Shown in pieces: positions 9,201-25,708 of a stretch of 30,434 nucleotides of DNA. A program made the position numbers and the translations under genes. The DNA lies in the NCBI GenBank assembly GCA_964647565.1, contig CAZYIM010000026.1, positions 10,762 through 41,195 of the forward strand. The letters are read 5' to 3'. Position 1 is the first letter of the stretch. Every line of letters starts with the position of its first letter. Origin of the DNA: an uncultured Methanosarcinales archaeon (GTDB taxonomy: Archaea > Nanobdellota > Nanobdellia > Woesearchaeales > CAZYIM01). The notes beneath the pieces were generated by a model. That model ran no database searches. It saw only the letters and a program-made list of their open reading frames with translations, and was not told the DNA's origin.

Positions 9201-12200
9201 TTATTGTTGGGGTTTGAGTGGTGAGGGTCAGGTTGGATATGGGGGTATTGAGAGCCAATTGACTCCTATTGCTGTTAATATTGCTGTTAATAATTTCTCT
9301 GATATTGATGCGGGAGGCGACCATACTTGTGCTCTTCATGTGAATGGTTCTGCTTATTGTTGGGGTGAGGGCCTGTATGGTAAGCTTGGTAATGGGGATG
9401 AGGGCAATCGGACTGTTCCAACTCAAGTTAACTATGCCCCTAATAATTGGACAACCATTTCAGGAGGCGCTTGGCAGCATACATGTGCTCTTCCTGTTAA
9501 TGGTTCTGCTTATTGTTGGGGAAGAGGTTTGTATGGTGTGCTTGGTGATGGAGGGACAGTTCAACAAAATACTCCTGTTGCTGTTAGTATTGGTGTTAAT
9601 AATTGGTCATCTATCTCTGCAGCTAAGGTCCATACTTGCGGCGTCCACATTAATGGTAGTGCTTATTGTTGGGGTGTTGGCACGGATGGCGAGCTTGGTT
9701 ATGGCGGTACTAGTGCTGCTGAGAACCTTCCGCTTGCTGTGAACTTTTCTCCTAATAATTGGACTGCTATCTACGCTAGCGACGAGCATACCTGCGGCGT
9801 TGTGCCTAATGGTTCTGCTTATTGTTGGGGTAATGGGAGTTATGGTGCGCTTGGATATGGGGGTAATGACAGTCAATTTGTCCCCATTTCTGTTAATAAG
9901 ATCCCTAATAACTGGAGTGTTTTATCTCAGGATGATGGAGAGTTTTTTTCTTGTGGTATCTTGTATAATGGTACTCTTTACTGTTGGGGTGAAGCAGGTA
10001 CTTCTAAGAGAACCGGGTTAAATTCCATGACTGATGTGTTTGTTCCTACTCAAGTAGTCTTTGATTATAGCCAGCCTATTACTGAGTTTGATTTGAAAAC
10101 AGTTTCTGTTACAAACAACGAAACACGTATTTTTGGATTACTTATTGATGGGGATGGACTTGTTGATGTTTCAAATGGGTTTGAGTATTATCGTATATAT
10201 CTCTCTACTTCTTCTGGTGGCAATAGTTCTAGTCCTGAGGGGAATTCTTTGCCGTTTGCGTATGATTATCGTGTTCAGGTGAATGGCAGTGTTTGTTATG
10301 TGTATAATGTTAGTTTTGATAATATGAGTAGTTGTAGTTTTGCGAATAGTGGTGGTGTTTTGGAGTTGTCTGTTTCGTTGGAGGATTTGGGTGCTTCGAC
10401 TGGTGATGTTTGGAATGTTAGTTTTGAGACTGCGAATTCAACTGCGCGTTATGATCTTGCTCCGGATAGTGCTTCTTTTGTGCGGTTTCCTTTGACGGGT
10501 TCGTTTGATTTTGGTGTTCCTTTGGTTAGTAGTGTGAGTGTTGTTCCTGGTATTGGTGTGAATGGTAGCGTGTTGAATGTTTCTGCTGTTGTTACAGATG
10601 ATAATACTGTTAGCATTGTTAAGGCAATGCTTAACTATCCAAATGGAAGCAATTTTGTTAATGTTAGTTTGGATAATACTGGTGGTGGCAGTGTGTATTA
10701 TAATGCGACTTATGCCTTGGATAATTTGGGTGTCTGGGGTAATTTGACTGCAACGATTTATGCTACTGATACTGGTGGTTATATCAATCAGAGTGAGAGC
10801 GCTCAGTTTATTCCTTATTGGAATGTGAGCCAGAATGGGAGTATTACTTTGGATGGTGCTGTTGGTGATTGGAGCACGCTTGCTAAACTTTCAGAGCCAT
10901 CAAGTGGAGATGCTGCGTCTTCTTATTCATTAAATTGGTCGTATAATTGGACATCACCTGAAAACCGGCATGATATTGCGTATGATGTTTTTGAGGATTC
11001 AAACGGTTCTGTGTATGTGGTTGGTTATGGTTCTAATACTTCGGGGAACGGTAATGCGAGGGATTGGTTAGTACAGAAACTGAATAGTGATAATAGTTTG
11101 AACTGGTCGTATAATTGGAGTTCGTCTGCCTTTCAAAATGATGAGGCGTATGGTGTTGCTGTGGATTCGAATGGTTTTGTGTATGTGGCAGGTTACGGCA
11201 AGAATGTTGTGGGGCAAGGCAATACTCCTGATTGGGTGGTTCAGAAGTTGAATTCTGATGGAGGGTTGAATTGGAGTTATAACTGGAGCTCGCCTGGAAG
11301 TAATTGGGATATTGTGGAGAGTGTTGCGGTTGATTCGAGTGGTTTTGTTTATGCTGCAGGCCGTGGCATGAATGCTTCTGGTAATGGTATTGCTTATGAT
11401 TGGTTGGTTCAGAAGTTGAATTCTGATGGTAGTTTGAATTGGTCTTATAATTGGACCTCTGCATGGGAATTCGGAGATGATGAACCGTATGGTGTTGCTG
11501 TTGATGATTCTGGTTTTGTGTATGTTGCTGGTTATGGCATTAATGCTTCGGGGAGTGGCAATGCTAATGATTGGTTGGTTCAGAAGTTGAATTCTGAGGG
11601 CTCATTGTGGTGGAGTTATAACTGGAGTACAGCAGGATCTAACACCGACACAGCAGAGGGTGTTGCTGTGAATTCTAGTGGTTTTGTCTATGTTGTTGGT
11701 AATGGTTTTAATGCTTCGGGGAGCGGCAATACCAATGATTGGGTGGTGCAGAAGCTTTCGATTGGTGGTACTATTGACTTGAAGGCTGTTTCTGTCTCTA
11801 ACAATGATTCTTATTTGTTTGGTTTGGTTGAGGTTGGGGGTAGTGTTGATGCTTCTGGTGCTGATGATTATTATCGTATGTATATCTCTACCACTAGTTC
11901 TGGTAATAGTACGTCTCCTGAAGGCAATTCTTTGCCGTTCCCATATGATTATCGTGTTCAAATAAATGGCAGTACTTGTTATGTGTATAATACGAGCTTT
12001 GTTAATATGAGCAGCTGTAGTTTTGCCAGCAGCAGTTCTTATCTTGAGTTTAGTTTTAATTTTTCTGATCTTGGTTTGAGTGTTAATGATACTGTTAATA
12101 TCACCTTTGAGACTGCTAACTCTACTACGGATGGGTTTGATTTGGCTCCTGATTATGCTTCTTTTGTGAAGTATACTATCAAAGAGGTTGATTTGGCTGC

Positions 12201-22206: not shown

Positions 22207-22459
22207 GGACCCGTAGCCTAGTCTGGATACCTGCGAATCCTGATGAGTAGGGATTAGCACGTAGTGCAAATAAGGCGACAGCCTTCTATTTGGACTGGCG
22301 TCCTAATCCTTTTGGACGTTATCCGAAAAGTAAGCTGTAGACCGTGGGTTCGAATCAACTGAAAGCTCGGTTGACACGCTGTGCGGCGTGCGCTCACAAC
22401 GCTCGCTTAGCCCCACGTGTCGATAATGTTTTTCGTTGTCGAAAGTCCCATCGGGTCCG
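22207..22459 (+). tRNA. tRNA-Arg(TCT) with three introns (D-loop ~22230-22272; 37/38 at 22289-22332; 59/60 at 22355-22445)
   Basis: The spliced sequence GGACCCG TA GCCT AGTCTGGATA AGGC G ACAGC CT TCT AA GCTGT AGACC GTGGG TTCGAAT CCCAT CGGGTCC G folds into a complete cloverleaf. The T-loop intron has a BHB-like junction (TTCG/CGAA helix, AA|t and ag|T bulges). The D-loop intron boundary is ambiguous by ~3 nt because ATA is repeated. Confidence 0.88.
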
Positions 22460-25439: not shown

Positions 25440-25483
25440 AGAGTAATCTTTTTAAATCATTTATAGGTTCTAATGATAAAGAC

Positions 25484-25516
25484 ACTATGCCTCCGTAGCA
25501 TAGTAGCTATTGCGGC
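25484..25516 (+). repeat. 33-bp direct repeat of the tRNA-Thr leader and positions 1-28 (5' tRNA fragment)
   Basis: ACTATGCCTCCGTAGCATAGTAGCTATTGCGGC is identical to 25619-25651. Confidence 0.95.
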
Positions 25517-25623
25517 CAAGGGTTTCGTTCCTTGACCCCGAAGTGCGACATTCGGTTGCTTACGCAACCTCAGTCCCACAAGCTCGCTTCGCGCGCTAAT
25601 AACATCAAACAAACCAATACTAT

Positions 25624-25708
25624 GCCTCCGTAGCATAGTAGCTATTGCGGCAGACTTGTATTTCAGCAAGCCATCTGCAGGTCGGGGGTGCAACTCCCCT
25701 CGGAGGCT
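25624..25708 (+). tRNA. tRNA-Thr(TGT) with a 12-nt intron at 37/38 (25661-25672)
   Basis: Spliced sequence GCCTCCG TA GCAT AGTAGCTA TTGC G GCAGA CT TGT AA TCTGC AGGTC GGGGG TGCAACT CCCCT CGGAGGC T. The BHB central helix CTTG/CAAG is perfect, with TA|t and cc|A bulges. A T7 tract follows. Confidence 0.9.

Follow-up and report, generated by a model that had tools for sequence, protein, structure and literature searches.

A folded non-coding element, probably mobile, found as tRNA introns and as repeat-flanked insertions in Woesearchaeota-type archaea

Two stretches of DNA, one directly in front of a tRNA-Thr gene and the other inside a tRNA-Arg gene, carry the same conserved and folded core of 52-66 nt, followed by a non-conserved tail of 0-75 nt. 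Both lie in the window, by which we mean the whole stretch of 30,434 nt that was analysed. We consider it likely that the two belong to a single family of small, non-coding elements, restricted to the lineage of Woesearchaeota-type (DPANN) archaea and mobile there now or until recently; the place of insertion and the capacity for splicing would decide the fate of a copy. The origin of archaeal tRNA introns is an open question, and here a single family is met in both states, as spliceable introns and as plain insertions between duplicated target sequences; it offers a concrete route to study archaeal tRNA intron gain. As the recognisable folded core can be searched for, intron gain becomes testable through filled and empty sites, RNA ends and the duplicating activity.

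The Thr copy occupies an insert (25517-25618) bracketed by a perfect 33-nt direct repeat, which the first-pass annotation had not recorded (Table 1). It is not an intron, since the mature tRNA is not interrupted: the insert precedes position 1 of the intact gene and is enclosed by two copies of the leader and tRNA positions 1-28. The minimum-free-energy fold of the Thr core is the consensus structure of the family (-20.2 kcal/mol); the tail lacks sequence conservation between members. In a public run, possibly the sample of origin, an independent contig of 164 nt covers 25487-25650 with zero differences, and the arrangement is therefore no assembly artefact. From its distance to the first tRNA-Thr copy, which is the TATA spacing usual in archaeal promoters, the TATA-like box at 25460-25465 is likely the promoter of the whole Thr unit.

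The Arg copy forms the predicted third intron of its gene. When this intron is removed, a standard arm is restored: the T-stem is GUGGG/CCCAU, the T-loop is UUCGAAU and the acceptor 3' strand comes next. The bulge-helix-bulge consists of a 5' bulge at 22353-22355, a 4-bp helix (22349-22352/22440-22443, UUCG/CGAA) and a 3' bulge at 22444-22446, with AAU and AGU as the bulges, the T-stem as outer helix and CAAC/GUUG as inner helix, the 3' strand of the latter with one extra base. The fold constrained to this motif has -41.0 kcal/mol, compared to -42.4 kcal/mol for the minimum free energy, a gap of 1.4. The tail contains GUUG, with which the 5' strand of P1, the first hairpin of the core, can pair as an alternative partner, and CGAA, which pairs with UUCG of the T-loop; in this model, the tail is thus the source of the 3' half of the splicing motif. 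The same layout is seen in 10 further copies, and we infer from this geometry that the Arg copy is spliced as an intron.

Table 1. Features of the Thr and Arg copies and of their tRNA genes in the window.
Feature	Position	Strand	Basis
TATA-like box	25460-25465	+	sequence reading; ~27 nt before the first, partial tRNA-Thr copy
Direct repeat copy 1 = truncated tRNA-Thr fragment, 5 leader bases and tRNA positions 1-28	25484-25516	+	33/33 identical to 25619-25651
Core of the Thr copy, made up of hairpin P1, a linker and helix P2 around hairpin P3	25517-25579	+	model R2, 56.2 bits, E 2.5e-13
Variable tail of Thr copy, containing the second motif of the first-pass annotation	25580-25618	+	between P2 end and repeat copy 2
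Direct repeat copy 2, running on into the intact tRNA-Thr	25619-25651	+	33/33 identical to copy 1
Intact tRNA-Thr(UGU) with 12-nt canonical intron	25624-25708	+	ARAGORN
Multi-intron tRNA-Arg gene	22207-22459	+	identity from the first-pass annotation; T-arm, acceptor 3' strand and intron 3 checked by inspection
tRNA-Arg T-stem	22344-22348 with 22447-22451	+	fold
tRNA-Arg acceptor 3' strand	22452-22458	+	fold
Intron 3, putative T-loop intron at tRNA positions 59/60, core and tail	22355-22445	+	bulge-helix-bulge geometry
Element core, Arg copy	22356-22416	+	model R2, 45.6 bits, E 1.7e-10
Tail of Arg copy	22417-22445	+	fold; comparison of 11 T-loop copies

That the two inserts are homologous follows most directly from a covariance model (R2) made from 47 matches in other genomes only, a choice intended to remove circularity. 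Run over the window with filters off, it picks exactly the two sites, 25517-25579 and 22356-22416 (56% identity), the next best hit having an E-value of 4.3. The inserts had first been linked on other grounds: both are GC-rich and some 90-100 nt long, which is borne out (102 nt with 51% G+C for Thr and 91 nt with 54% for Arg, against 40.6% in the window), and both contain TCGGTTG (25552-25558 and 22367-22373) followed, after 18 nt in Thr and 21 nt in Arg, by CACAA(C)GCTCGCTT (25577-25589 and 22395-22408). These motifs are indeed where they had been placed, and the kinship drawn from them stands, but their alignment is in the wrong register. In the R2 alignment, TCGGTTG is the start of the P2 loop plus the inserted hairpin in Thr and the 3' strand of P1 in Arg, while CACAAGCTCGCTT is the last 3 nt of P2 plus tail in Thr and lies inside the P2 loop in Arg. 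Because these are non-equivalent positions of the model, the motif alignment is probably a coincidence. Alternatively, it may reflect a partial second copy in the Thr tail, the first 17 nt of which resemble, by inspection, the tail of a T-loop intron in another genome (L024) and the P2-loop insert of the Arg subfamily.

Taken by itself, the pair has modest significance. The top score in local alignment, 22 for the CACAA..GCTCGCTT block, was matched by 18 of 2000 dinucleotide shuffles, and an ordered shared 7-mer and 8-mer occurred in 7 of 2000; a figure of 0 of 100 for the motif pattern is circular, the pattern having been written from the same two sites. Such moderate values, together with short motifs at non-homologous model positions, are what one would cite for a chance resemblance between two G+C-rich structured stretches. 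Dozens of further members speak against it, and it is already refuted by the covariation and by the E-values from a model of other genomes, so that we give it practically no weight. The observation that started this work is thus partly confirmed.

The core starts with P1, a 6-bp hairpin beginning with CAA and ending with UUG, which is followed by a linker of 6-13 nt and by P2, a helix of seven positions. P2 reads GUGCGAC/GUCCCAC in this genome, while GUGCAGC/GCUGCAC, GUGGGAC/GUCCCAC, GUGAGAC/GUCUCAC, GUACGAC/GUCGUAC and others are found elsewhere; its loop, AUUCGC...GCUCA, can hold an extra hairpin, P3. Among the 47 copies from other genomes, 93.9% of the cells are paired, compared to 72.4% in shuffles, and 14 of the 15 pairs have changes on both sides, values reached in 0 of 500 shuffles (slid controls, 27-45% paired), although the alignment was fitted to the model, which somewhat favours structure. 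The loop of P1 is complementary to the linker in many members, but not all (mean longest match 2.87 vs 2.26 for permuted linkers, with 0 of 2000 permutations reaching this value), which suggests that the two probably form a pseudoknot. At gathering score, Rfam 15 has no match in the window, and none of its curated covariance models, those of small self-cleaving ribozymes included, represents the family; for six loci of this genome searched with E up to 1, the sole match is a tRNA. A description of the structured motif was likewise not found in the Woesearchaeota literature, taken here as that outside subscription journals and supplements. The core is, in our view, an undescribed structured RNA motif of DPANN archaea.

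In the genome to which the window belongs (2.68 Mb in 86 contigs, 38% G+C), BLAST and profile searches revealed a copy on contig 8 that bridges the Thr and Arg sequences, after which further copies were found; a model of nine copies from this genome (R1) detects 10 in total. The possibility that no further members exist, named at the outset as what would speak against a family, is thus not borne out: R1 also matches 16 of 61 genomes that represent, with one per family, the order to which the window belongs, and R2 yields 48 full-length matches, out of 53, in the 72 loci of an exact-pattern scan with one genome per species. Two of the 16 genomes are rich in copies, with 26 and 13 matches, many of them at contig ends. 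Beyond the order the family thins out; in a class-wide sample, 10 of 151 genomes have a match, and one of the 10 lies outside the order. The full-length matches of the scan are almost all in records named Woesearchaeota, Nanoarchaeota, Nanoarchaeia or 'archaeon', including the complete chromosome CP010425.1. Seven of the 72 loci duplicate one genome, G053, and overall we viewed some 100-110 distinct copies. For the scan, in which a pattern of 20 bases was sought with 31 gap lengths over 596 billion bases, roughly 30 matches are expected by chance. We treat the bacterial matches as being of this kind; the four that were checked (L075, L087, L094, L133) match R2 only partially, over the pattern itself. 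Viral contigs gave 0 matches to the pattern GCGACATTCGC..CTCAGTCCC.

Six of the 10 copies in this genome lie in or beside tRNA genes, and so do 17 of 47 in the loci of relatives (14 by ARAGORN, 3 by inspection). Pairwise identity between the cores of this genome is 41-73%, while the repeats that flank them are perfect, a combination not accounted for by a simple, recent burst from one master copy residing in the genome.

Besides the 33 nt at the Thr locus, flanking repeats in this genome measure 24 and 22 nt (contig 8), 21 nt (contig 31), 18 nt (contig 36) and 46 nt (contig 12). On contig 8 (~9920-10215), a single tRNA has a repeat-flanked copy at both of its ends; the copy at the 5' end is in sense orientation with the 24-nt repeat, and the one at the 3' end is antisense, its 22-nt repeat including the T-rich trailer. 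The anticodon of this tRNA is GUG by sequence reading, whereas ARAGORN calls it Ser. The copies on contigs 31 and 36 are at tRNAs as well. The contig 12 copy (1455-1641 of locus L007) lies between two co-oriented genes of an apparent operon; the first of them, with 425 codons, has its five 3'-terminal codons replaced and is separated by the copy from the next gene of the operon. In other genomes, the repeats are 10-43 nt long and occur at the ends of tRNAs; in two protein genes they are found at the ribosome-binding site and start, and one repeat overlies a TATA box. The proposal of small elements that target tRNA genes holds as far as the family and its tRNA sites are concerned, but its targets also include the ends of protein genes and one promoter.

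The repeat-flanked copies share a strict polarity. Part of a recognisable gene is included in the repeat in 23 cases; in all of them, as judged by inspection, the truncated copy of the target is 5' of the core and the intact gene is behind the tail. Twelve lie at the 5' end of a gene, where the element is in sense orientation, and 11 at the 3' end, where it is antisense. Seven gene-less or ambiguous cases were left out of the tally (L033, L109, L120, L142, L143, L035:1624, L025:1739). The spacing between the repeats is 53-140 nt, with a sharp 5' junction (0-11 nt) and a ragged 3' tail (0-75 nt). The tRNA break points vary from position 10 to 28 at the 5' end and from about 48 to 66 at the 3' end.

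Other copies abut a gene without a repeat, the first base of the core being 0-2 nt from the mature 3' end of a tRNA (L026, L065, L124), from the 5' end of a divergent tRNA (L037, L062, L068, L130) or from the start codon of a divergent protein gene (L091, L097, L108, L140, L142). In three of the last group (L091, L097, L108, all of them Woesearchaeota-type records), we take the divergent gene, from the look of its N-terminus, to encode ribosomal protein uS19, and in L097 the other side presumably holds the end of the ribosomal protein L2 gene; this placement may be a conserved site or an insertion hot spot. For cores without a near repeat, no second repeat copy was found within 1.5 kb. At two loci (L025 in G019 contig 5 and L114 in CP010425.1, ~594.5-595.1 kb), several copies of one tRNA 3' fragment alternate with family copies beside the intact tRNA, which looks like repeated insertion at a single site. 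An empty site or presence-absence polymorphism was not seen in four public DNA runs, whose low-depth contigs break at the repeats and contain no joint. Public RNA runs containing the locus were not found. Metagenome contigs gave no close relative of the Thr locus, and a search with the protein encoded next to it gave 46 pattern matches, 0 of which were confirmed.

The intron state is likewise found repeatedly, so that both fates proposed in the first-pass annotation, introns and flanking insertions with duplicated tRNA ends, occur many times over. Including that of the window, there are 11 T-loop introns (L019, L024, L066, L073, L076, L080, L082, L092, L107, L139 and Arg), which are modelled as having bulge-helix-bulge intron geometry at positions 59/60. 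Each of them is preceded by a T-stem strand and UUCRA, and behind its tail come YGAA, two more bases, a U and the strand that completes the T-stem. Their inner helix is made of the 5' strand of the core and of a mimic of the P1 3' strand located in the tail; as the same core strand is used in both structures, we suggest that the T-loop introns can switch between a 'splice' fold and a 'core' fold. By inspection, the core also starts introns at the canonical position (L058, L059, L071, L118) and an intron in the D-loop (L090). Throughout the intron copies, the 5' end of the core coincides with the 5' splice site of the intron.

Longer forms exist in addition. This genome has three units of ~225 nt with pairing ends and a conserved TATA-like box, and G053 has many units in which terminal inverted repeats enclose the core and whose length is ~290 nt, or 372 nt in L050; at least three loci of G053 hold identical 54-nt cores inside such units. 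Of four clean cases in G053, two have exact target duplications of 9-10 nt (L044, L050), one an imperfect duplication (L043) and one none (L049). The ~290-nt unit is a second way in which the core spreads. The short form, to which both copies of the window belong, has no terminal inverted repeats, and its duplications vary from 10 to 46 nt.

We propose that the element is non-autonomous and mobile now or until recently, and that new copies would be placed at or in the ends of genes, above all those of tRNAs, with duplication of 10-46 nt of the target around the new copy. A copy near the end of a tRNA gene would be harmless, as the duplication preserves one whole gene. The Thr locus may be a case of this kind; its arrangement would have arisen by insertion, and the native promoter would read through fragment, core, tail and tRNA, the long leader then being trimmed off. 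A copy inside a tRNA loop would survive only if it can be spliced, as may be the case for Arg at 59/60; here, the tail would pair with the 5' strand of the core and with the exon, to form the bulge-helix-bulge. The direction of evolution in this scheme is one that we infer. We base the mobility itself on the flanking repeats, the identical copies in one genome, the positions at contig ends, the patchy range and the stacked arrays of tRNA fragments and elements. Taken together, we believe that the interpretation of the two inserts as members of a mobile family with two fates is supported.

An enzyme responsible for this is not apparent among the three protein families that we covered. Reverse transcriptase (PF00078) was found in one of five element-bearing genomes, but not in G000 (86.9% complete), G053 (83%), G017 (98%) and G027 (94%); the Y1 transposase (PF01797) is present in 2 of 16 genomes with the element vs 13 of 45 without it; and tyrosine recombinases are present in 11 of 16 vs 40 of 45, which is no positive association. 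The expectation that an integrase, a HUH/Y1 transposase or a reverse transcriptase would track the family is thus contradicted, and with no enzyme co-occurring, mobility has to be read from anatomy and copy pattern. Duplications of 10-46 nt combined with strict orientation fit no transposase that we could name. The long and variable duplications, sharp 5' and ragged 3' ends, strict orientation, diverged cores and missing enzyme together point to a polar copying process, possibly with an RNA intermediate. This variant of the main reading, which is compatible with it, would have an excised, intron-like RNA of core and tail with a defined 5' end, copied by a polymerase into gene termini through template switching or target priming; we regard it as rather unlikely, if worth stating. 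Its appeal lies in the coincidence of core 5' end and intron 5' splice site, in the sharp 5' junction (0-11 nt) set against a tail of 0-75 nt, in the polar orientation of 23 out of 23 cases, and in the position of the core 0-2 nt from a mature tRNA end in 7 cases. The outer end of the repeat is moreover 0-7 nt before position 1 or 0-12 nt past the 3' end in 20 of 20 tRNA cases, often in a T-run and so near the presumptive end of the primary transcript, and the tails are rich in A (of 402 nt, 178 are A and 77 are T, and 14 of 19 tails have more A than T). On the other hand, four of five bearing genomes, one of them 98% complete, gave no reverse transcriptase, and the repeat at the contig 12 protein gene is wholly within an operon; selection acting on insertions whose duplications are short and of varying length could likewise bring repeat ends close to gene ends. 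The A-richness may stem from a decayed outer repeat or from the complement of a T-rich trailer, or terminators may have been selected against. We did not adopt exosome-type A-rich tails as proof of an RNA intermediate, as several of them look like one of the first two. We can only speculate, and with considerable doubt, that the core marks a moving RNA which is copied back at transcribed gene ends in a polar manner and with no dedicated reverse transcriptase, leaving behind long duplications and, in tRNA loops, new spliceable introns. The core might then be the handle for the copying reaction, either as a fold recognised by a ligase or polymerase or as a small ribozyme.

Two further explanations dispense with a small mobile element. 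The core could mainly be a functional RNA module of the cell, such as a protein-binding or processing signal or an undescribed ribozyme, with the observed contexts resulting from recruitment and local duplication. Strong conservation of sequence and structure across an order would be expected of such a module, and so would the copy shared at the same place by L120 and L109, with 1 difference in 67 nt while the adjacent coding DNA is, by eye, clearly more diverged. In addition, the long forms have a TATA-like box of their own, and the core directly adjoins the start codon of the uS19-like gene in three genomes, which hints at a cellular role over pure selfishness. However, a module of this kind should hardly be confined to 16 of 61 genomes of the same order, lie antisense at tRNA 3' ends (11 cases), be flanked by repeats at unrelated protein genes, or occur as identical copies in the G053 units with terminal inverted repeats and target duplications; we therefore think that this explanation has a small chance of being right, somewhat below that of the RNA intermediate. 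Less probable still, to the point of being improbable, is that the repeat-flanked copies are scars left by the integrase-mediated integration of larger elements, with the duplicated tRNA part as attachment site and the bulk lost later. A duplicated tRNA segment beside an insert is a classic signature of integration, seen here on both sides of the insert, and tyrosine recombinases are found in 51 of 61 genomes; the report on Caldiarchaeum (PMC3293823) also links a 5' tRNA fragment, a recombinase-bearing element of 1.8 kb and a gained intron. Yet only 53-140 nt lie between the repeats, the varying tRNA break point leaves no fixed crossover site, copies without a near repeat have no second repeat copy at kilobase distance, the recombinases are not positively associated with the family, no viral contig matches, and the same core also occurs in introns and at protein genes.

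A family of small mobile elements, which we prefer, invites comparison with known systems. Like miniature inverted-repeat transposable elements, it is non-autonomous and multi-copy, and the ~290-nt form of G053 has terminal inverted repeats, with duplications of 9-10 nt in two of the four clean cases; the short form differs from them by the lack of terminal inverted repeats, the sharp 5' and variable 3' end, its target duplications, which are 10-46 nt long, and its strict polarity. 'Insertion with long target duplication' is reportedly a property of bacterial restriction-modification units, which are said to lack terminal inverted repeats and to have an unusually long target duplication. The present inserts likewise lack terminal inverted repeats and are bracketed by an unusually long duplication, but the bacterial units are gene-sized and without a folded core, while the present family is folded and linked to tRNA introns. 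Variable target duplications, a defined 5' end and an A-rich 3' tail, as SINE-type retroposons have them, are seen here, but the A-richness has other possible causes, and a reverse transcriptase was found in only one of five bearing genomes. Elements derived from IS200/IS605 are set apart by the distribution of the Y1 transposase (2/16 vs 13/45) and by the long duplications seen here, and integrase-type elements by the fixed crossover and co-occurring integrase that are missing here, even if a duplicated tRNA segment at both ends is shared with them.

The closest precedents concern archaeal tRNA genes themselves. In the Thermoproteales, intron families common to different tRNA genes and positions have been described as 'large-scale tRNA intron transposition' (Fujishima et al. 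2010, as relayed in PMC4090602 and 10.64898/2026.10.13.758758), by a mechanism that PMC4090602 calls unknown. The likeness lies in related introns in different tRNA genes, at T-loop, anticodon-loop and D-loop positions and under the constraint of a bulge-helix-bulge; the differences lie in the DPANN, Woesearchaeota-type lineage, in a defined and covarying folded core, and in the occurrence of the present family outside introns as well, flanked by repeats at tRNA and protein-gene ends and in units with terminal inverted repeats. Since it is found outside introns and flanked by repeats, the family has left direct footprints at the DNA level. In Caldiarchaeum subterraneum, a tRNA gene was disrupted by an integrating mobile element (Sugahara et al. 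2012, PMC3293823). Both cases have a 5' tRNA fragment, an insert and an intact tRNA in a row and both are tied to intron gain, but the Caldiarchaeum insert is 1.8 kb long and codes for a recombinase, while the present inserts are 53-140 nt, non-coding and folded, with no associated enzyme.

A few observations on the tRNA genes of this genome may be added. A tRNA-Thr(UGU) call by ARAGORN on contig 15, with an 'intron at 28' and thus a seeming link to the break point of the Thr repeat, was rejected as a misfold of another tRNA. ARAGORN lists only 18 tRNA genes in G000, 17 of them with an intron; many more are probably missed owing to several introns each. About 60 nt upstream of the tRNA-Arg gene, there is a perfect 17-nt inverted repeat (22080-22096/22129-22145) within the A+T-rich spacer. 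Within the first intron of the same gene, CUGAUGAG (22240-22247) resembles what we take to be the C box of C/D small RNAs.
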